This document shows, piece by piece, positions 4,004 through 30,203 of a stretch of DNA of 64,000 nucleotides. This stretch comes from Patescibacteria group bacterium. Lineage in GTDB: Bacteria > Patescibacteriota > Patescibacteriia > UBA9934 > GWF2-40-263. How positions within the stretch are numbered: position 1 is the stretch's first letter; the number at the start of each line of letters is the position of its first letter. A program made the position numbers and the translations under genes. A model generated the notes under the pieces. The model saw only the letters and a list, made by a program, of their open reading frames with translations, had not been told where the DNA came from and did no database searches. Location of the stretch: positions 742,716 to 806,715 of the forward strand of contig SCUM01000001.1 of the NCBI GenBank assembly GCA_004297215.1. Direction: 5' to 3'.

Positions 4004-5116
4004 TTAGGATATCTCCGTTTCCCTGTCAATCTCGGGGGATGCAAGCGCCTTCCCCGTCTTCCCTGCGGCAATCTTGAAAATGTCCTTGTCGATTTTCTTC
4101 AGCTCGTTGCTCGACTCTGCATACGCGCGGGCGGTCGTCTCCAGATGCTTCCCGACCTTGCCGTGATACTCCTCGTACGCCTTGAGATGGCGATTGAGAT
4201 GTTCCGCCTGCACCTGGATCTCCTTCACCGAATCCTCGATCTGCAGCGCACGCAAGCCAAGCAGCACCGTCTGCAGGTAGGCGAAGAAGGAGGTGGGCGA
4301 CACGATCATCACCCCCTTCTCGAACGCGTACTCGATGAGATTGCGCGTGTTCACGTTCACGGCGCCGACGCTCGAGGTGATGAGATTGTGATAGACCCCT
4401 TCGGCCGGGACGAACATGAACGAAAAGTTCGTAGTTCCGCGCTCCGGACGGATGTATTTAGATGTCTCATCAATGCGCTTCTTGACGTCACTCTTGAATT
4501 CGCGCTCCAAGGCCTCTCGTCGGAGCGCATCTGTCTCAAGAGAAATTTTGTTGTAGTTCTCTAACGAAAATTTTGCGTCAATTGGTATCAACATTTCCTT
4601 CACGAAGATAACGGCATCTGGAATCAGTTTTGCATTCGTATCTTCGTCTACTCCCAGATCGTATTGCATTTGGTACTGGGTGGGTTGTAATACCTGTCCA
4701 AGAAGCGTTTCAAGCCAATATTCCCCAAGAATTCCTCGCTGCTTTGGATTCTTAAGAATATTTTCCAAGCTCTGTAGCTGTTTGGAGAAGTCCAGTACTT
4801 GCTTATTCGTTTCATCTAGCTTCGTGAGCTTTTCCGTTACATCCCGGACGATGCCAGAGGTATGAGCGGAATGCTTCTGGATCATCTGCATCGAATCATT
4901 CAGGCCTCGTGACATCCGGTCATCGATGCGATCCAGACGCCCCTGGAGTTCGGTTCTTCCCTTGGTTGATACCTCATCCATGTCCCGGCGGATGTCATTA
5001 AGCAGCTGGATCACTGACGAATCCAATGGGGCAGCTCCGACAGACCGCCTGGAATAGAAAAGAAAGGCGATAAGGCCGACAATCACGACAACCATGGCGA
5101 TTTCAATCGAATTCAT
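4004..5116 (-). CDS. rmuC: DNA recombination protein RmuC
   Basis: 370 aa. N-terminal TM helix plus coiled coil. C-terminal RmuC nuclease-like domain (FSFMFVPAEGVYHNLI...MIVSPTSFFAYLQTV). Confidence 0.85.
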   Translation of the reverse strand: MNSIEIAMVVVIVGLIAFLFYSRRSVGAAPLDSSVIQLLNDIRRDMDEVSTKGRTELQGRLDRIDDRMSRGLNDSMQMIQKHSAHTSGIVRDVTEKLTKLDETNKQVLDFSKQLQSLENILKNPKQRGILGEYWLETLLGQVLQPTQYQMQYDLGVDEDTNAKLIPDAVIFVKEMLIPIDAKFSLENYNKISLETDALRREALEREFKSDVKKRIDETSKYIRPERGTTNFSFMFVPAEGVYHNLITSSVGAVNVNTRNLIEYAFEKGVMIVSPTSFFAYLQTVLLGLRALQIEDSVKEIQVQAEHLNRHLKAYEEYHGKVGKHLETTARAYAESSNELKKIDKDIFKIAAGKTGKALASPEIDRETEIS

Positions 5117-5149: not shown

Positions 5150-5261
5150 GCGCCCACTGGAAGCTTAGTATAGCACGGACATTCACAACCCACCCATCCA
5201 GCACATGTACGTTTTACGACACATAAATGTTTCATGTGAAACAAAATGGGAGTTCGTTAAT

Positions 5262-5336
5262 GCCCTCATAGCTCAACGGATAGAGCAGATCCGTCCTAAG
5301 GATAAGATGGGGGTTCAATTCCCTCTGGGGGCACCA
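5262..5336 (+). tRNA. tRNA-Arg (anticodon CCU)
   Basis: Cloverleaf folds: acceptor GCCCTCA/TGGGGGC, T-loop GGTTCAATTCC, anticodon loop GTCCTAA, encoded 3' ACCA. Confidence 0.8.
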
Positions 5337-5437
5337 GCCTTCGCTCTTGATCGAGCCTAGGCAGACGCGCCAGCCACAGCTCGCTAGTGCGACATGTGGT
5401 AGCAGAGAATGTTTCACGTGGAACAAAATGGAAGTAT

Positions 5438-5513
5438 GGGCCGATAGCTCAGCTGGTAGAGCGCTGCATTCGCATTGCAGAGGTCTGGGGTTCGATTCCC
5501 CATCGGTCCACCA
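5438..5513 (+). tRNA. tRNA-Ala (anticodon CGC)
   Basis: 76 nt. Acceptor GGGCCGA/TCGGTCC with G3:U70, D-arm TAGCTCAGCTGGTAGAGC, anticodon loop TTCGCAT, T-loop GGTTCGATTCC, CCA encoded. Confidence 0.9.
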
Positions 5514-5545
5514 GAGATCACTACGGAAGTAGTGATTTTTGTTTT

Positions 5546-5726
5546 GCTCAGCCCCGACGCTACGCCATCGAGTCTCAAGGCGTAGGTCGGGGGTCCGACC
5601 GAAGCGTCGGACCTGGTAGAGCGCTGCATTCGCATTGCAGCCCAGACGCTTTCTGATGAAAGGTCGGGGTCCCGGACCCATCAGGCGTCGGGAAGGTCTG
5701 GGGTTCGATTCCCCACAGGTCCACCA
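5546..5726 (+). pseudogene. tRNA-Ala-like gene copy disrupted by two palindromic insertions (pseudo-tRNA or unusual tRNA)
   Basis: The 3' two-thirds matches tRNA-Ala(CGC) exactly (CTGCATTCGCATTGCAG ... GGTCTGGGGTTCGATTCCCCACAGGTCCACCA). A 52-nt hairpin (CCCAGACGC..GCGTCGGG) sits in the variable-loop position. The D-arm region GCTCAG / CTGGTAGAGC is split by a second CCCGACGCT..AGCGTCGG palindrome. No intact 5' acceptor strand. Confidence 0.5.
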
Positions 5727-5757
5727 AAAGTCGCCTTGAAAGTGGCGACTTTTGTAT
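5727..5757 (+). terminator. Rho-independent terminator after the tRNA cluster
   Basis: AAGTCGCC-TTGAAAGT-GGCGACTTTTGTATTT hairpin followed by a T-run. Confidence 0.75.
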
Positions 5758-20106: not shown

Positions 20107-23100
20107 ATGGATCTCCTCGAACGCAAGGACCACCCGCTTTGCCGCCTGATGCAGGGGGTGGTTGCGGTCGCGTTGGTGATCACCGGAGGGATCGCCTCGA
20201 CCTGGGTGATGTTCGAGGCTCTCTCCGTCTTTGCCGTCTCTCCCCCGAATATCATCTCGTACCAGGGGAGGCTCCTCAACGCCAACGGCGTGCCGGACGC
20301 TTCCGCTTCCCGCGACTTCCAGTTCCGCTTGTACGACTCGCTGGCCGCCGGCACCTGCCTGTGGAGCAATGACGACAGCTCCTGCGCCTCCGACGCCGAT
20401 TTGGCCGTGACGCTCACCGACGGATTATTCTCCGAGAACCTGGGCGACACCGGGGCCGGGTACGCCGCCATCCCGGATTCCGTGTTCGCCGATGACGCGA
20501 GCGTGTTCCTCGAGGTGGAGGTGGAAGGGGAGGTGCTTTCGCCGCGCAAGCAGATTGGCGCCGCGGCGTACGCCATGAACGCGGATACGCTGGATGGGAT
20601 CAATTCCACGAGTTTCTTCGTCCAAAATGGCAACTCCCTCGGCGCCGCGGCCGTGCTCGGGACCAATGACGGCTTCGGACTTGAGCTGGAGACGGGCGGG
20701 ACGACGCGACTGACGTTAGGGACAAGCGGCGCGATTACCGTTCCCCTTGCCGGCTCTTTCGTATTCGATGACGATGCGACCGACGGGTTGGATGACGACA
20801 TGACCCTCGAAGTCGCCGCGTCGCTGGCGTACCCCGGATTCGACGTCACCGTCATGCATCCGTCCTTCGGATTGCTTGAACTCGTGGATCCCGTGAATAG
20901 CGCCCCGGGAATCGCGTTGCACGGCGACCTCCCAGCATACGCCATCAACGTGGATAACCCTGGAGGGGCGGGGACGGCCTTCTTTCCCATGTCGTTCTTT
21001 CGCGAGGGCGCTTCAAGTTCTCCCTTCTTCTCGATGCAGACCTATCCGGATGACGACGGTTGGGCCATCTACGGACCGAGCGTCGCTGATCCCGGGGTCA
21101 TTCAGATCCTCGAAGCCGGCACGGTGAACGCCGGTGCCTATGCCGCTCGTAGCGACGCTTCGGCGATTCCGATCCTGTGCGCGTCCACGCGGGTCGAGGA
21201 GACCGCCGCGAACCTGGTCCAGGAATCATGCTTCATGGCCGACGGTTCTCTCGACCTCGGGCTCGCGCTCGCGGGCACGGACACGACCGTGGCCCAAGGC
21301 GGCATCGAGCGGTCCAGCGGATCGGACGAGACCTTCGCCTTCGCGAACCAGGGCGCGGGAGTCCTTTCTCTGACCGCGGATGGCACGGTGGACGTCTCCG
21401 GCCACGCCGCCATCGGCGCGGACGCGCTGATTGATGACGGAGGCCTCCTCTATCCCGGCTCCACCTTCTCCAACACGCTCAACGTGTCCGAGCGGAGCAC
21501 GGACGCGAGCGTGGACTACGTCGAGGGCACCACCAACTACCTCCTGTACGACCCGTCGGCGGACGCCTCAGGCATCTGGGCGATCGCCCTCGATTCCGAG
21601 GCGGCCACCGAGGCGACGAACGCCGAGGACGTCGGCACCCTGTCGGCCGGGTATTTCAACGCGACCCACAACGGGACAGGCGACATCACGAGCTGGATGT
21701 CCGGCATCGAGGCGTACGTCTACACCACTGCGACCGGCGGGAGTTCGATCTCGAACATCGGCGGGTATTTCTCGGTCACCGCCCAGGACCCGCGCGCCAC
21801 AGGCACCGAAGACAACTACGGCGTGTGGTCGGCCGTGCACCGCACCGGCGCCACGGGCGGCACCATCAACACGTATGGCATGTACGTGGACAACGACGGC
21901 GTGGACGCGGCCGGGGCCGGTACCTCCACCCTCTACGGACTGTTCCTCGAGAGCATGACCGGCGCGGACACCAACTATTCCATCTACTCCGCGGGCGGCC
22001 AGAGCTACCATGCCGGCAACTTCGGGATCGGGGCGACCACTCCGGACGCCGACCTCGACATCGAGGCCGCGGAGGACACGGAGCGCGTGAGGCTCACCGA
22101 CTCGAGCAACGCCGACTCCGTGGGATTGTACGTGGGCGACGGCACCGCCGGGCTCGACGGCACCCTTTCGGCCCAGGCCGGCTCCCTCTTCCTCGACGAG
22201 GACGGGAAGCTGTGGGTGAACATGGACGGGGCGACCAACTGGGACCAGGTGGCCACCACGGCCGGCGGGGGGACGGACCTCGACGGGGTGTACGACAACG
22301 ATTCGGACAAGAAGATGGCCGTGGACAACGCCTCGGGCCTCGAGTTCGAGAGCACCACCGCGGGCAACGTGTTCGTGGACCTGCAAAGCTCGGGCGACTT
22401 CGTGATCCAGTCGGTTGGCACCGCCTTCGCCACCTTCAACGACTCCGGCAACGTCAGTTTCGAGAACTCGCTCACGGTCGGTTCGAGCTCCGCCGACGTG
22501 GTGCTGTTCAACGCCGACGTGGACAGCCATTTTCTCCCCGACGACGACGACACCTACGACCTGGGCGCCGACGCCCAGCGCTGGAGGGACCTCTACCTCG
22601 GGGCCGCGACCTTGCACGTCGGTTCTCTTATCGGCGACGAAGGGACGCTCTCGTATGACAGCACGCCAAACGACTTCAATTTCGCAAATGGCGGCGCCAC
22701 GCGGATGACCATCCAAAGCGACGGCGACGTGGGAATCGGGGATTCGATGACCTCGCCCACCGCCCAGCTGCACATCAAGCAGACCGCCGCCGAGGACGCC
22801 CTGCGCGTGGACGACGAGGCGGCCGGCACCACCTATTTCGTGGTGGACGACGGCGGCAACGTGGGCATCGGGGTCACCTCCGGCCCGTCCTCCACGCTGC
22901 ACGTGGTGGGCGATACGCGCATCGGCGCCACGGATTACGTCACCATGGCGCAGGACGGCGGCGGGTTCTACGTGGAGCAGATCGGGAGTTCCGACGCGCT
23001 GCGCCCGATTCGCCTGCAGTCGCGCAACGCGGCGACCCAGTACAGCCAGTTCTTCGTGGACCCGGTGAACGGGTTCCAGTTCCTCATCAACGCCACCGGC

Positions 23101-26100
23101 GCCAACAACAACGTGGGCATCGCGGATTCCACGCCGGACAACCTGCTCGACATCCTCTCCGGTTCCGACGCCGCCCTCGCGCTTACCTCGACGGGCACGG
23201 ACACGGACCCGCTCATCAAGTTCGAGCTTGCCGACGGCACGCCTACCTTCACCTTGGGCGTGGACGATTCGGATTCGGACAAGTTCAAGATCTCCACCAC
23301 GGCGCTTGGCACGAGCGACCGCCTGGTCATCGACTCGTCCGGCTTCGTGGGCATTGGCACCTCGACGCCGGACGCGGCGTTCGACGTGGAAGCGGCCGTG
23401 GACGCCAACGGGGCGAATGTCCTGTTCGAAGCCAACGACTCGGGGGTGTCCGGCAGCTACTTCCGCATCGCCGACGGCACCGAGGCGGACACGCATTTCG
23501 TCCCCTACATCATGACGAAGGGGATCGGCACCGGGGCGGCGGACCGCGCCGGGCTGATCATCGACGCGCAGCCGGGCGAGGACGGGAGCGACGACGTCGC
23601 GGTGATCGTCGACGCGCATCTTTCCGGCGCGGCGCTCACGAGCGCGCACCTGTTCGAGGTGCGAAACGACGCGACGCCGCTGCTGCGCGTCGCAGCCAAC
23701 GGCAACCTCGTCTCGTTCGGTTCCGTCGGCATCGGGACGGGAACGCCCGGGGCCAGCCTCGACGTGGATCCCGCCAACGTCGTGGGCGGCGGCACCTCCG
23801 AGCAACCCTCGATCCTCGGATCGAACCAGGTGATTGCGCTTGCCGACGGGACGACCCGGGCGAATCAGCGCCAGTTCAAGTTCCTCGCGCCGACCCTGAA
23901 CGGGGTCGCGGGCGGAGGCACCGAAACGGTCACGGACGCGGCCACCTTCTACGTCTCCGACGCCCCGTCGGGTTCGGACATCACCTTCACCAACGGCCCG
24001 TACGCCCTGTGGGTGGATGCCGGGACGGCGCGGTTCGACGGGGACGCCATCGTGGGCGGCAGCACGTCGATCACGGAGACCCTCGCGAACGCCGGATTCT
24101 CGATTGGCGGCGACGACCTGTTCGTGGCCGGCACCGCGGGCGTGGAAGGGAACGTGTACACGGACGGGTCGTTCATCGCGGGCGCCACCCTCACGCTCGC
24201 GGATTCCGGCATCACCGAGAGCGGCGCGTTCACCTTCACCTCCCAGCTCGCCGCCGGCGGCACCACCTCTTCCGCCTACAACCTGGTCACGAGCAACGAC
24301 CTCGGTTCCGCCGACGAAGTGCTCCAGATCGGTGACTCGACAGGCACCTTCGCGACCGTCCTTGGGAACGGCAACGTCGGGATTGGAGAAGTCGACCCGG
24401 CCACGATCCTACACGTTTCCGGCACCCAGGCTCGCGTCACCATCGAGGACACGGGAAAGGGGACGGGGCCGGCCGTGCTTGGGCACGATTCCGGCATGTT
24501 GTTTCTCGAGAACAACGGCATACGCGTCATCTCCATCAACGACTCCGGCGGTTCCACGGGATTCGGCGACCAGAGCCCGAACGCCATCGTGGAAGTCGAC
24601 CAGGCCGGCGGCAGCGTCGACCCATTCCTCATCTCGAGCAACAACGGCGTGGACGGCGACCTGTTCAACGTGCAGGACGGAGGCGCCGTGGGCGTGGGCG
24701 ACGTTTCTCCGGACGCCAGGTTCGACATTGACGACGGCGCCGCGACCGGGACGATCGTGGGGGTGCTCTCGAACGCCGGGACGCAGGCCGGATCCTTGAT
24801 CGGCCTTTCGCTCGACTTCGACTCGTCGCTCGCCGGCGCCGCCAACCTGGACTTCACCGGCGTGAGGCTCCTCACCCCCAATCTCACGCAATCCACCGCG
24901 GATACCACCGACTACCTCGGGTACGACCTGGCGGCTGGCGCCATCACCCAGGACACGCTTGCCGGGACGATCAATTGGACCGGCGCGCGCATCGCCATGC
25001 CCGTGCAGGTGCAGACCACCGGCATCGTGAACACGAGCGGGCTCACGGTCACGGACAACGGGTCGAGCAACAGCGGGGTGAAGCGCGGATTGTTCGTGGA
25101 TTTCAGCGGCATCCAAAGCGGCGGGACCCTGGTGGGCCTTGACGTGGACAGCATCACAACCGGCGGCGGCAACGGGCTTGGCGTGCGCATCGGGTCCGGG
25201 TTCGACACGGATCTCCAGTTTGTGAACGCCGCCGCCGTCATCCGCGTTCCCAACGCGGGCACGCTCGACTTCCAGGACGCCTCGGAGAACTCCCTCATGC
25301 TGCTTACGGACGCGGGAAGCACGAGCACCCTCGACGTGAACGGCTCCATCCGCGCCGGGACGCCTGGCACGGACGGCCAGTTCCGCCTCTACTCCGAGCA
25401 GGGAGCCACGGACTACGAGGTCGCGTTCAACCCGCATGCGGCCATGACGCAGGCCACCGCCTACACCCTTCCGGCGGACGACGGCGGATCCGGCCAATTG
25501 CTCACCACCGACGGGTCCGGCGCGCTCTCTTGGTCAACCGCCGCTTCGGGCGACATCACGGCCGTGGGCTCCATGACCTCCGGCGACGCCTTCGCGGACT
25601 CCACGGCCGACGACGACTGGCTCGGCCTTGGCGCCAGCGCCGGCCGCATCGAGTTCGATGACCAGGCCACGGACGAGGTGAACATCCTCGGCGCGAACGT
25701 CGGCATTGGCACCTCGACGCCTGGTTCAACCATCGACGCCACGTCCCCGGCGACCCTCACCACGGCCTATCAGCTCCTGGCCGATTCGGTGACGGACGGG
25801 ACGGGATTGGAACTGTCCCTCGACAGCCTGAACGAGGGTTACGGCCTGCTCGTAACGAGCACGGCAGATGCGGATTACGGGTCTGACCTGGCCGGATTCC
25901 AGCAGTTCGCCGTGTCCACGGGTACCGCGACCATGGACGGGAACGTGGAGAGGATCGTTCAGAACCTGGACTCCAGTACCACGGGGACCCTCACGGTGAG
26001 CGGCAACGCGATGCGGATCCAGCGCGCGGTGAACGCCAACAGCGGCACGACCCTGGACGCGACGGGCGCGGTCATGCGTATCAGCGACCAGACCGGCGCC

Positions 26101-27555
26101 GGGACAGGGACCCTCAACTCGAGCTCGGACGTGCTTTCCCTCACCCAATTCATCACGACGAACAGCGGCGACGCGTTGGGCATCCTGCACCAGGGCACAG
26201 GCATCGGGGCCCACATCACCATGAGCACCGTGAGCGCCCCCGCATCCGGTTCCGTGGGCAACCAGGCCTTGGTGCTCGACACCAATGAGACGCAGAGCAA
26301 CGACGACATGTTCATCATCCGCTCCGACGCCGACGGCACTCCGGACACGGAGTTCATCTTCGAGGCCGACGGGGATGCCGTGGCCGACGGCAGCTTCACC
26401 GGCGGCGGGGCCGACTACGCCGAGTACTACCGTGTTTCCGACCAAGGGATTGAGGCCGGCGACGTCGTCTGCCTCGACCAGGAGAACCCTGGCGACGTCA
26501 CTCGCTGCTCCGCTTCCGCCCCTGTCCCCACCGGCGTCATCTCCACCAAGCCCGGGTTCCTCGCCAATGGCCAGGGCAGGGACGTGGCGGCCGACCCCTC
26601 GTTCAAGCCGGTCGGCCTGATGGGTCAGGTCCCGACGAAGGTCAGCCTTGAGAACGGCGACATCGCGGTCGGCGACCCCGTCGTCGCTTCCGTGACCGCT
26701 CCGGGACGCGCCATGAAGGCCGTCGAGGCCGGCCAGATCGTCGGCTACGCGCTCGAGCCCCATACCAGCCAGTCTCCTGACGCGGAGATCCTCGTATACG
26801 TGCGCCCTGGATACCACGCGGCACTCTCCTCCCAGACCGCCGCCGGCACCGACAACCGGGCTTCGGAGATCCCGTCCTCGGGCCTCACCGCGCTCAACAT
26901 GAGCGGCAACATCTACATGGCGGGCAACGGAATCCTCGACGTTGGCGCGATTGAGGGCATCGGCGCGCGCTGGTCGGTCGACGCCGATGGGAAATTCGCA
27001 ACCCAGGCTTCCTACGACGTGGTCATCAAGAGCTACCAGGACGAGGACGTGACCGTGCACGCGGTGCTCGGGCGCGAACACAAGGTGACGCTCGACGGCA
27101 CAGCGACCCTCGAGAACGGGGTCGCGACGGTCGCGTTCGAGACGGTCGACCCGCTCTTCAACGACATCACGTCGACGACGGCCGACATCCGCGTGTCCGT
27201 GACCCCCAACGGCCCCGCCTACCTCTATGTCGTCTCGAAGGACCACAACGGGTTCACGGTGCAGCAGTTGAACGGCAGCGACTCGGGCATCACCTTCGAC
27301 TGGTTCGTGAGCGCGTATCGGAAGGACTATGAGCCGGAGGTGATTGAGGTTGTTGAGGTGACGGAGGAGATGCCGGTCGAGGAATCGGTCCCGACCGAAG
27401 GACCCGTGCCGGAACCGGTCGTCGAAGAACCTGCACCTATCCAGGAGACGGCTCCCGTGACCGACCCGGCACCGACCGAGCCTGCTTCGACGGATTCGCC
27501 ACTGGTTGAAGAACCGGCGCCAGAACCGCCCCCGACAGATGAAACCCCGACATAG
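20107..27555 (+). CDS. Giant surface protein 2 (tandem paralog of giant 1)
   Basis: 2482 aa. The first ~135 aa after the TM and a ~1.3-kb internal block are near-identical to giant 1 at DNA level (20237-20610 vs 11617-11990; 21385-22650 vs 12560-13830). One C-terminal conserved module (26400-26780), conserved C-terminal domain, PE-rich tail. Confidence 0.85.
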   Translation: MDLLERKDHPLCRLMQGVVAVALVITGGIASTWVMFEALSVFAVSPPNIISYQGRLLNANGVPDASASRDFQFRLYDSLAAGTCLWSNDDSSCASDADLAVTLTDGLFSENLGDTGAGYAAIPDSVFADDASVFLEVEVEGEVLSPRKQIGAAAYAMNADTLDGINSTSFFVQNGNSLGAAAVLGTNDGFGLELETGGTTRLTLGTSGAITVPLAGSFVFDDDATDGLDDDMTLEVAASLAYPGFDVTVMHPSFGLLELVDPVNSAPGIALHGDLPAYAINVDNPGGAGTAFFPMSFFREGASSSPFFSMQTYPDDDGWAIYGPSVADPGVIQILEAGTVNAGAYAARSDASAIPILCASTRVEETAANLVQESCFMADGSLDLGLALAGTDTTVAQGGIERSSGSDETFAFANQGAGVLSLTADGTVDVSGHAAIGADALIDDGGLLYPGSTFSNTLNVSERSTDASVDYVEGTTNYLLYDPSADASGIWAIALDSEAATEATNAEDVGTLSAGYFNATHNGTGDITSWMSGIEAYVYTTATGGSSISNIGGYFSVTAQDPRATGTEDNYGVWSAVHRTGATGGTINTYGMYVDNDGVDAAGAGTSTLYGLFLESMTGADTNYSIYSAGGQSYHAGNFGIGATTPDADLDIEAAEDTERVRLTDSSNADSVGLYVGDGTAGLDGTLSAQAGSLFLDEDGKLWVNMDGATNWDQVATTAGGGTDLDGVYDNDSDKKMAVDNASGLEFESTTAGNVFVDLQSSGDFVIQSVGTAFATFNDSGNVSFENSLTVGSSSADVVLFNADVDSHFLPDDDDTYDLGADAQRWRDLYLGAATLHVGSLIGDEGTLSYDSTPNDFNFANGGATRMTIQSDGDVGIGDSMTSPTAQLHIKQTAAEDALRVDDEAAGTTYFVVDDGGNVGIGVTSGPSSTLHVVGDTRIGATDYVTMAQDGGGFYVEQIGSSDALRPIRLQSRNAATQYSQFFVDPVNGFQFLINATGANNNVGIADSTPDNLLDILSGSDAALALTSTGTDTDPLIKFELADGTPTFTLGVDDSDSDKFKISTTALGTSDRLVIDSSGFVGIGTSTPDAAFDVEAAVDANGANVLFEANDSGVSGSYFRIADGTEADTHFVPYIMTKGIGTGAADRAGLIIDAQPGEDGSDDVAVIVDAHLSGAALTSAHLFEVRNDATPLLRVAANGNLVSFGSVGIGTGTPGASLDVDPANVVGGGTSEQPSILGSNQVIALADGTTRANQRQFKFLAPTLNGVAGGGTETVTDAATFYVSDAPSGSDITFTNGPYALWVDAGTARFDGDAIVGGSTSITETLANAGFSIGGDDLFVAGTAGVEGNVYTDGSFIAGATLTLADSGITESGAFTFTSQLAAGGTTSSAYNLVTSNDLGSADEVLQIGDSTGTFATVLGNGNVGIGEVDPATILHVSGTQARVTIEDTGKGTGPAVLGHDSGMLFLENNGIRVISINDSGGSTGFGDQSPNAIVEVDQAGGSVDPFLISSNNGVDGDLFNVQDGGAVGVGDVSPDARFDIDDGAATGTIVGVLSNAGTQAGSLIGLSLDFDSSLAGAANLDFTGVRLLTPNLTQSTADTTDYLGYDLAAGAITQDTLAGTINWTGARIAMPVQVQTTGIVNTSGLTVTDNGSSNSGVKRGLFVDFSGIQSGGTLVGLDVDSITTGGGNGLGVRIGSGFDTDLQFVNAAAVIRVPNAGTLDFQDASENSLMLLTDAGSTSTLDVNGSIRAGTPGTDGQFRLYSEQGATDYEVAFNPHAAMTQATAYTLPADDGGSGQLLTTDGSGALSWSTAASGDITAVGSMTSGDAFADSTADDDWLGLGASAGRIEFDDQATDEVNILGANVGIGTSTPGSTIDATSPATLTTAYQLLADSVTDGTGLELSLDSLNEGYGLLVTSTADADYGSDLAGFQQFAVSTGTATMDGNVERIVQNLDSSTTGTLTVSGNAMRIQRAVNANSGTTLDATGAVMRISDQTGAGTGTLNSSSDVLSLTQFITTNSGDALGILHQGTGIGAHITMSTVSAPASGSVGNQALVLDTNETQSNDDMFIIRSDADGTPDTEFIFEADGDAVADGSFTGGGADYAEYYRVSDQGIEAGDVVCLDQENPGDVTRCSASAPVPTGVISTKPGFLANGQGRDVAADPSFKPVGLMGQVPTKVSLENGDIAVGDPVVASVTAPGRAMKAVEAGQIVGYALEPHTSQSPDAEILVYVRPGYHAALSSQTAAGTDNRASEIPSSGLTALNMSGNIYMAGNGILDVGAIEGIGARWSVDADGKFATQASYDVVIKSYQDEDVTVHAVLGREHKVTLDGTATLENGVATVAFETVDPLFNDITSTTADIRVSVTPNGPAYLYVVSKDHNGFTVQQLNGSDSGITFDWFVSAYRKDYEPEVIEVVEVTEEMPVEESVPTEGPVPEPVVEEPAPIQETAPVTDPAPTEPASTDSPLVEEPAPEPPPTDETPT

Positions 27556-27575
27556 CGTCGGGGTTTTGCTATACT

Positions 27576-30001: not shown

Positions 30002-30077
30002 TGGTGGACCCTAACGGGATCGAACCGTTGACCTCTTCCATGCCATGGAAGCGCTCTACCAGCTGAGCTAAGGGCCC
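30002..30077 (-). tRNA. tRNA-Ala (anticodon GGC)
   Basis: Reverse complement GGGCCCTTAGCTCAGCTGGTAGAGCGCTTCCATGGCATGGAAGAGGTCAACGGTTCGATCCCGTTAGGGTCCACCA. G3:U70, anticodon loop ATGGCAT, CCA encoded. Confidence 0.9.
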
Positions 30078-30089
30078 GAACGTGCGGAA

Positions 30090-30118
30090 AGGATAGCGTC
30101 GAATTTGAACCCGGTCAA
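30090..30118 (-). promoter_or_regulatory. Promoter for tRNA-Ala(GGC), minus strand
   Basis: On the minus strand TTGACC, 17-nt spacer, TATCCT, ending about 10 nt before the tRNA 5' end. Adjacent triple GGTTGAACC/GGTTCGACC repeat and hairpin at 30124-30165. Confidence 0.5.
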
Positions 30119-30203
30119 GGGCTTGGGAGGTTCGACCTGGGAGGTTGAACCTCCCAGGTTGAACCTCGACACGCGACCGTTTCTCCGCTAGCATGCGCCC
30201 ATT

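Follow-up and report, generated by a model that had tools for sequence, protein, structure and literature searches.

What is the structured DNA that lies directly behind the tRNA-Ala(CGC) gene of this Patescibacteria genome, and does the broken second copy of the gene found there record an accident or the passage of a specific element? The stretch analysed, called the window throughout, is 64,000 nucleotides (nt) long. The locus in question, at positions 5546-5726, is a partial copy of tRNA-Ala(CGC) interrupted by two GC-rich hairpin inserts. On the comparisons given below, it is probably a non-functional footprint, lacking an open reading frame (ORF), of a tRNA-targeting family of nuclease/hairpin cassettes of Patescibacteria. 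The features of the locus are as follows.

5438..5513, plus strand: tRNA-Ala(CGC), intact and the functional counterpart of the broken copy (ARAGORN; Rfam tRNA, 68.6 bits)
5512..5541, plus strand: intrinsic terminator of the intact tRNA, 13-pair stem and T-run, the T-run abutting the broken copy (terminator scan)
5546..5551, plus strand: broken copy, segment 1, GCTCAG, tRNA positions 10-15, 6/6 identical to the intact gene
5552..5612, plus strand: hairpin element 1 (61 nt), CCCCGAC..GTCGGGG and GTCCGAC..GTCGGAC, at tRNA position 15/16 (covariance model (CM) R1; fold as single-stranded DNA (ssDNA))
5613..5640, plus strand: broken copy, segment 2, positions 16-43, rest of the D-arm and the anticodon arm (CGC), 28/28 identical
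5641..5693, plus strand: hairpin element 2 (53 nt), a long imperfect hairpin at tRNA position 43/44 (CM R1; ssDNA fold)
5694..5726, plus strand: broken copy, segment 3, positions 44-76, variable loop, T-arm, 3' acceptor CAGGTCC and ACCA, 31/33 identical
5725..5754, plus strand: second intrinsic terminator, that of the broken copy, 11 pairs and T-run (terminator scan)

Reading and alignment resolved the broken copy into three collinear pieces covering positions 10-76 of the tRNA, with the two inserts between them. When both inserts were excised in silico, identity with the intact gene was 65/67; the sole mismatches were at positions 66 and 67 (TC to CA, window 5716-5717). Insert 1 sits between G15 and C16 of the D-loop and insert 2 between positions 43 and 44, with AGGTC kept after it. 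Both insertions were clean, with no duplicated flank at 15/16 or 43/44, and the inserts are thus not miniature inverted-repeat transposable elements (MITEs) in the classical sense of terminal inverted repeats (TIRs) plus a target duplication. The gap of about 32-33 nt between the intact gene and the broken copy is made up of the terminator, and tRNA positions 1-9 are absent, the T-run of the first terminator abutting GCTCAG directly. The second terminator has the architecture of the first, with compensatory changes in the stem in the alignment. The broken copy was not called as a tRNA by Rfam or by ARAGORN, which was run with and without intron models as the original prediction for this DNA had suggested, and no promoter-like site was found on the plus strand between 5149 and 5777. 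With homology to a tRNA gene and loss of essential parts, the copy is a tRNA pseudogene of the truncated-duplicate type.

Much of what that prediction had proposed was borne out by this anatomy, namely a 5'-truncated duplicate of tRNA-Ala(CGC), a second, related palindrome interrupting GCTCAG, and the lack of a complete 5' acceptor strand. The self-complementary insert that it had placed further downstream is also present; it measures 53 nt and not 52, and the variable loop is not replaced by it.

A complementarity within the locus was recorded separately. GGACCTG (5609-5615), formed by the last letters of hairpin 1 and the CTG of the D-loop, can pair without mismatch with CAGGTCC (5716-5722) of the displaced 3' acceptor; the substitutions at positions 66 and 67 bring this pairing to its full 7 bp. 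No such pairing was seen at three other loci described below (L003, L127 and L129), and the end of hairpin 1 as a substitute 5' acceptor strand was rejected as a general explanation, since it does not hold across loci. The conserved hairpin core, AGGTCGGGGGTCCG (5584-5597 and 5661-5674), matches the variable-loop/T-arm sequence of the tRNA, AGGTCTGGGGTTCG (5481-5494 and 5694-5707), at 12 of 14 letters, which hints at a tRNA T-arm as the possible origin of the hairpin family.

The two inserts are related to each other, insert 1 reading CCCCGACGC..GGTCGGGGGTCCGACC..GCGTCGGAC and insert 2 CCCAGACGC..GGTCGGGGTCCCGGACC..GCGTCGGGA. Folded as ssDNA on either strand, insert 1 gave z -5.4/-5.5 and insert 2 z -3.7/-4.3 against shuffles; the RNA fold of the entire region gave z -4.3. 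For the anatomy of the element 17-20 copies from this and other loci were compared, and covariation was scored on a 12-sequence alignment. The family unit is NNCCGAC-loop-GTCGGN'N'; usually two units stand side by side, CCCCGAC..GTCGGGG and then GTCCGAC..GTCGGAC, sometimes with nested extra units. Perfect complementarity was found in 33 of 37 unit pairs, with five covarying NN/N'N' combinations. In the double-hairpin structure 98.8% of the cells were paired, four pairs changed on both sides, and the covariation score was reached by 0 of 500 shuffles. An alternative fold, with an outer CCGACGC/GCGTCGG stem and a central GGTCGG/CCGACC hairpin, was compatible and showed zero covariation. The single outer palindrome CCCGACGC/GCGTCGGG that had been proposed from the letters alone therefore gives way to two adjacent hairpins, which comparative covariation favours.

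Membership of the family was defined with model R1 as at least two units between the conserved ends CCCCGACG..CGTCGGRN, and both window inserts belong to it. Insert 1 scored 54.2 bits, being itself in the training set, and insert 2 scored 32.7 bits (E 3e-4) with a model built without it; scores at other loci were 30-68 bits. Hairpin 2 is a degenerate or long-hairpin subtype (CTGATG..CATCAG, with the end GCGTCGGG), and the same subtype occurs at 42/43 of a tRNA-Pro copy (L062, below). Across copies the GC fraction was 0.46-0.80, the elements staying GC-rich even in AT-rich hosts. Insertions across loci were clean, without target duplication, and lay right after YAG (CAG, TAG or AAG).

The search for other copies of the hairpin, which had likewise been suggested, found none more in the 64-kb window by exact and gapped patterns, blastn-short and filter-free CM search (nothing else below E 0.05), and recovered family members at other Patescibacteria loci. 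A borderline CM hit at 27485-27563 (20 bits, E 0.05) is the terminator of a 2482-amino-acid (aa) ORF at 20107-27555; its hairpin (27543-27567, plus strand), CCCCGAC-ATAGC-GTCGGGG followed by TTTT, has the same 7-bp stem as the hairpin unit and may be a coincidence or a domesticated single unit. Rfam at permissive thresholds gave no hairpin family for the window region and seven related loci, and a scan of viral contigs with the hairpin pattern gave no match. In species-representative genomes the pattern scan returned at least 117 chance single matches in unrelated GC-rich genomes, plus three in the Uhrbacteria assembly GCA_943354165.1; the window's own genome was absent from the matches listed. 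As a negative control, full elements numbered 0 among the 117 unrelated GC-rich seed hits listed (892 kb). The metagenome pattern scan yielded two loci only, L127 and L128. No HUH/Y1 transposase or TnpB was seen beside any of 14 loci, in a search confined to the loci and not extended to whole genomes.

The sample on which the family rests comprised about 14 Patescibacteria loci with about 22 hairpin copies. Relatives of hairpin 1 were present at L014, L025, L062, L127-L131, L134, L141, L143 and L144, with an orthologous element at L003. Hairpins inside tRNA-gene fragments accounted for 19 of the roughly 22 copies; nine tRNA species were involved, and an intact copy of the same tRNA always stood beside the fragment. 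The insertion points were 10/11, 15/16, 16/17, 39/40, 42/43 and 43/44, all of them in the D-loop, at either edge of the D-arm or at the 3' edge of the anticodon stem. Two of these loci were found without any tRNA requirement in the search. At L062 (GCA_943354165.1) an intact tRNA-Pro(TGG) is followed by a 24-nt spacer, TGGCGCAG, a hairpin, positions 16-42, a further hairpin, positions 43-76 and then a terminator; the broken copy matches the neighbouring gene in each of its 69 tRNA bases. At L014 a 5' fragment of tRNA-Ile(TAT) (positions 2-15) with its hairpin lies 17 nt upstream of the intact gene. Such recurrence of one layout across nine tRNA species most likely reflects a specific tRNA-targeting element, beyond random decay plus chance hits. 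In GCA_943354165.1, (A/T)GTAG-rich tandem-like repeats were also noted (L014 2900-3010; L025 3330-3370), the L025 hairpin being inserted after GTAG.

A nuclease gene usually accompanies the layout. At L127, which had been found by the hairpin pattern alone, the order is tRNA-Val(GAC), terminator, an 87-codon ORF, TAGCTCAG, a hairpin, positions 16-77 (62/62 identical) and a terminator, and the ORF encodes a GIY-YIG catalytic domain (PF01541, E 3e-17). Seven further nuclease loci, encoding distinct GIY-YIG proteins, were then fetched, selected without regard to context. All eight GIY-YIG loci (L127 and the seven listed here) had hairpins in tRNA fragments adjoining an intact gene for the same tRNA.

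L129: Ala-TGC cassette
L130: Ala-TGC cassette, with a second hairpin at 39/40
L131: Val-GAC cassette, hairpins flanking the intact tRNA plus ORF on both sides
L134: Arg-GCG cassette, hairpin at 16/17, upstream of the ORF
L141: Val-CAC cassette, in the complete genome CP066687.1
L143: Phe-GAA cassette, in the complete genome CP060230.1, hairpin-bearing fragments on both sides
L144: Asn-GTT cassette

The nucleases encoded by the cassettes are 86-99 aa long and UPF0213-like, consisting of the catalytic domain only, without a DNA-binding domain. The solved structures nearest to the L127 protein were those of the UPF0213 proteins BH0048 and EF2693; phage homing endonucleases matched weakly and in the N-terminal motif only (PHROGs and PADLOC included). 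Homologs numbered 168 at E<=1e-5, and all taxa named in the sources were Patescibacteria lineages. Twenty members from Uhr-, Giovannoni-, Nomura-, Kaiser- and Moraniibacteria shared 51-79% identity, with the positions of Y15, Y26, R36, H40 and E72 (GIY, YIG, Arg, His and Glu) invariant, and the family is under selection.

The ORF was flanked either by the intact and the hairpin-broken copy or by hairpin-containing direct repeats of 70-87 nt. At L144 it lies between 70-nt direct repeats, and at L141 the ORF, the intact tRNA and another ORF lie between direct repeats of about 87 nt; each of these repeats consists of a tRNA 5' fragment, the hairpin and the next few tRNA bases. At L131 and L141 the broken fragments match the intact copy less closely (32/39 identical and 73%), with compensatory changes in the T-stem and anticodon stem. 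These changes imply that the fragments were once functional alleles, the intact gene being a replacement brought by the cassette. Right-hand hairpins beside the same nuclease protein from different samples differed by a 46-nt indel between GTCGGGG repeats (L131 1765-1856 against L132 1586-1628 and L133 1766-1808), which indicates that the elements turn over quickly by slippage or recombination.

Some further details of the cassettes were noted. The U8-A9-G10 TAG of a tRNA copy forms the stop codon of the ORF in four of them (L127 332-334, L129 1762-1764, L130 1762-1764 and L141 962-964); the L127 stop belongs to the broken copy, and at L141 the ORF runs 10 nt into the functional tRNA-Val. Displaced 3' fragments at L129 (1829-1889) and L127 (192-261) exceeded the Rfam tRNA gathering score with 38.4 and 36.7 bits, and one was called by ARAGORN. 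L134 (1067-1260) also shows partial tRNA duplication of a second kind: the 3' end of tRNA-Arg(GCG), together with its flank (GCCGAGGGCATTTGAGCGAAGCGAAAATGTCCGAGAG), recurs about 150 nt downstream, on the far side of another structured insert rich in GC.

The history of the window locus was followed in relatives, whose corresponding rmuC-tRNA neighbourhoods were retrieved by way of RmuC homologs. The sequence of the intact tRNA-Ala(CGC) is the same, letter for letter, in L002 and L003. In L003 (RmuC 84% identical, an independent sample) the intact gene and its terminator are followed by TAGCTCAG, an insert, and CTGGTAGAGC onward through ACCA. The ends and core of this insert are those of window hairpin 1 (CCCCGACGC .. 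GGTCGTGGGTCCGACC .. GCGTCGGAT) and its internal arms are different; the second insert is absent. In the tRNA part of L003 four letters are substituted and 1 nt is deleted, so that the anticodon loop has 6 nt and the T-stem contains mismatches. L002 (RmuC 82%) retains a recognisable relic of the insert ends only, and L004 (RmuC 77%) has nothing past the terminator, so the broken copy is polymorphic among relatives, present, a relic or empty. Since the arrangement is the same in L003, the broken copy with hairpin 1 is older than the divergence of L003 and the window lineage and has been lost in other relatives; hairpin 2 is specific to the window lineage, and the broken copy is not conserved as a tRNA. 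L006 (RmuC 84%) differs in having GGGCCGATA (tRNA-Ala positions 1-9), a 155-nt hairpin-rich insert and then the full gene. This multi-hairpin insert (L006 1-240, minus strand) belongs to a different sequence family, and the contig ends inside the tRNA. The L003 junction, TTTTTGA-A-TAGCTCAG, equals the ORF-containing junction of L129 (TTTTTGA-promoter-ORF-TAGCTCAG) minus the ORF module, a correspondence compatible with loss of the ORF and with an ORF-free ancestral state alike.

From these loci a complete cassette would comprise an 86-99 aa GIY-YIG nuclease gene; at least one GC-rich double hairpin in the invaded tRNA gene, at 10/11 or 15/16 and sometimes also at 39-44; and a copy of that tRNA, intact or completing, by which the cell would retain a working gene. 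The resident tRNA gene, or part of it, would be displaced as a hairpin-interrupted fragment. The nuclease may recognise DNA structure (extruded or single-stranded hairpins, or D-arm DNA) and not sequence, and the breaks that it makes could cause the cassette to be copied or recombined into tRNA genes, which would provide short homology arms conserved between species. Hairpin-bearing fragments could then be the sites of junction or attachment. The window locus has the family hairpin in a tRNA fragment at 15/16 beside an intact copy and lacks a GIY-YIG ORF between the copies. It is filed as an ORF-less derivative and not as a complete cassette, because only a terminator separates the copies and no homolog was found in the window by tblastn. 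Its fragment of positions 10-76 combines the ancestral D-loop hairpin, in common with L003, and a family member at 43/44 present in its own lineage only. The ORF would have been lost there, no tRNA product is expected, and transcription would occur at most by read-through.

Several observations weigh against so reading the locus. The GIY-YIG gene is absent from the whole 64-kb window, and among the 120 homologs listed none came from the source contig of the window, so the link between window and nuclease would rest on homology of hairpin and layout. Three hairpins lie outside recognisable tRNA fragments (that of L025 in a GTAG-rich repeat, that of L128 in an AT-rich spacer, and L141 146-184), so independent existence or movement is possible. 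ORF-less forms could be ancestral, a tandem duplication with a hairpin being invaded by the ORF later. The tRNA segments of the window are 65/67 identical while those of L003 have decayed, which would need gene conversion, chance or some selection, gene conversion from the neighbouring gene being the simplest answer. Simple homing does not account for the presence of the presumed target sequence in the intact copy. Finally, the activity of the nuclease is a prediction, and the sample is about 14 loci.

The original prediction had favoured a decaying duplicate hit by mobile hairpins. Truncated duplicate and dispersed hairpin family were both confirmed; a chance accident proved too weak an account, since the layout recurs. 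In its strict form, that of a chance partial tandem duplication and two hits by an autonomous palindromic element (MITE-like, or like the repetitive extragenic palindromes, REP) unrelated to GIY-YIG, it is unlikely. A tandem duplication of positions 10-76 plus the terminator would give the exact layout, the window is without an ORF, hairpins occur at non-tRNA sites too, and orthologs decay. It has to face a truncated-copy layout with the same hairpin positions at nine tRNA species in unrelated lineages, one that accompanies 8/8 sampled GIY-YIG genes, with most hairpins in tRNA fragments; independent chance duplications would be less stereotyped. We think it quite improbable that the fragment is itself functional, as a site where circular GIY-YIG cassettes attach or land or as a tRNA-like non-coding RNA (ncRNA) with two extra arms, acting for example with the nuclease. 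Its well-kept tRNA segments, a terminator maintained by compensatory changes, the GGACCTG/CAGGTCC pairing and the tRNA scores of 37-38 bits for the displaced copies of L127 and L129 would be in keeping with a function, and the ORF between fragment-plus-hairpin repeats in L141 and L144 is what recombination at such a site predicts. Against it stand the base missing from the anticodon loop and the T-stem mismatches of L003, the mere relic in L002, the absence of a promoter of its own, and an acceptor-like complementarity that is not found in L003, L127 or L129. An ncRNA resembling Y RNA, or one that is tRNA-like in another way, was rejected, there being no Rfam hit and no Ro-type neighbour.

A functional tRNA gene interrupted by introns, or one split with its 5' half elsewhere, had been kept in view by the original prediction and can now, along with a permuted form, be given very little weight. 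The inserts do lie at loop or stem-junction positions, where they could extrude as separate helices, and the D-, anticodon- and T-arm sequences are intact from position 10 on; yet the 5' acceptor strand and U8/A9 are absent, ARAGORN with introns and Rfam both fail, in-silico excision yields no true acceptor stem, an identical intact isoacceptor lies directly upstream, inserts occur also at non-tRNA sites, and the orthologs are decaying (L003), a relic (L002) or lost (L004). A group I intron was rejected, the inserts being of 53-61 nt at 15/16 and 43/44, as against a ribozyme of at least 200 nt in the anticodon loop, with no Rfam intron match. An archaeal-type tRNA processed at a bulge-helix-bulge (BHB), or one split or permuted, was likewise rejected on the bacterial host, the bacterial-type T-loop, the encoded CCA, the intrinsic terminators and a 5' half that was not found; bacteria are not known to have the archaeal BHB splicing endonuclease. 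Hardly any credence is due to an attR-type remnant of a deleted integrase island or to an assembly artefact. Integrative elements do leave partial 3' tRNA duplicates, but here an integrase is absent, the copies are about 32-33 nt apart, and the duplicate starts at 8-10, far upstream of the usual att cores. An artefact is countered by the same structure in more than 10 independent assemblies, including CP066687.1, CP060230.1 and the orthologous contig from another sample.

The surroundings of the locus are unremarkable. The window has a GC content of about 65%; its host is a Patescibacteria genome close to Candidatus Uhrbacteria, the best RmuC relatives being from Uhrbacteria, and the neighbours of the tRNA pair are RmuC and hypothetical proteins in conserved synteny.

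4004-5116, minus strand: rmuC, transcribed divergently, the tRNA pair lying downstream
5262-5336: tRNA-Arg(CCT) (ARAGORN and Rfam)

A 16-nt palindrome, TGTTTCAYGTGRAACA, is present at 5228-5243 and 5410-5425, about 12-18 nt 5' of tRNA-Arg(CCT) and tRNA-Ala(CGC), and is kept upstream of the same tRNAs in L002, L003 and L006. Further upstream (window 5210-5224) is a second conserved motif, CGTTTTACGAC(A/G)CAT; both look like promoter or operator elements of the tRNA genes. Just 5' of the second Ala gene, tRNA-Ala(GGC) at 30002-30077, repeated GGTTCAACCTCCCAGG motifs (30100-30180, minus strand) form a perfect hairpin, CCTGGGAGG-TTCAA-CCTCCCAGG, with a T-arm-like loop.

Among known systems, free-standing GIY-YIG cassettes of fungal mitochondria duplicate part of the invaded gene, as does the mobile ORF in atp6, and similar 3'-end duplications are known. 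The likeness extends to an ORF in an essential gene, a replacement part supplied with it, a displaced fragment left as a downstream pseudogene, and frequent loss of the ORF. The Patescibacteria cassettes differ in their bacterial chromosomal tRNA target, the bare UPF0213-type domain of about 87 aa and the double hairpin at the junction, and some carry a whole xenologous tRNA. Mitochondrial hairpins include the double-hairpin elements of Allomyces, the GC clusters of yeast and the GC-rich PstI palindromes flanking tRNA genes in Neurospora. Repetitive hairpin-forming elements (RHEs) have been described in sponge mitochondria (PMC2800124). Like these, the present elements are short, GC-rich, dispersed and apparently mobile, with conserved stems, near or in RNA genes and mobile ORFs; unlike them, they occupy precise tRNA positions on a bacterial chromosome (of free-living type) and are tied to partial tRNA duplications. 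With REP/RAYT systems and the PATEs derived from IS200/IS605 they share definition by a hairpin, the lack of usual TIRs and target duplication, insertion 3' of a motif (here YAG) and plausible handling as ssDNA, whereas the associated enzyme here is GIY-YIG and the preference is for tRNA D-arm and anticodon-stem junctions.

SegB of phage T4 is a GIY-YIG homing endonuclease in a tRNA gene cluster (mentioned in PMC13096335). It shares the type of nuclease and a selfish spread tied to tRNA genes, but is larger, has a DNA-binding region, and neither splits tRNA genes with hairpins nor duplicates them. Rickettsia palindromic elements are selfish palindromic insertions in genes, RNA genes included, and are tolerated in functional genes; here the palindrome is also inside a gene, but the copy hit has no function and always has an intact one next to it. 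The attC site of integrons is an imperfect palindrome that folds into a hairpin and is tied to a single-ORF gene cassette. The ORF between two site copies in L141 and L144 resembles this arrangement, but a tyrosine recombinase and the attC R/L box consensus are both lacking, and the site lies in tRNA fragments. A literature search covering tRNA introns and insertions in the candidate phyla radiation (CPR), GIY-YIG with tRNA, Patescibacteria or palindromes, and COG2827/UPF0213/YhbQ found no pertinent prior description. What is apparently new is the combination of a bacterial tRNA target, fixed D-arm sites, a bare UPF0213-type nuclease, the CCGAC/GTCGG double hairpin and a replacement tRNA.

The window locus itself is an ordinary-looking, informative relic. 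Tentatively, and short of a view that we would yet favour, bare UPF0213-type GIY-YIG nucleases and CCGAC/GTCGG double hairpins may form an unrecognised class of mobile element that invades D-arms, brings or regenerates the tRNA, and uses the fragments as recombination or attachment sites, the window being a solo site. Two orphans would thereby be linked, the domain-only GIY-YIG proteins of UPF0213 and the GC-rich hairpin repeats of mitochondrial type, as a testable nuclease-substrate pair, and the long function-less UPF0213 family would gain a concrete, testable role. In practice the fragments break assemblies, many cassette contigs being of 0.5-3 kb, and hairpin-displaced relics are likely mis-annotated as tRNA genes in Patescibacteria, two displaced copies passing the Rfam threshold. 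Patescibacteria genomes are tiny and most of their tRNA genes are probably single-copy; the element breaks tRNA genes and yet always leaves or brings a working copy. Such a selfish element, paying for its own damage, would open a route for horizontal replacement of tRNA genes and, if the reading is true, would explain their turnover and xenologous replacement in ultra-small genomes.

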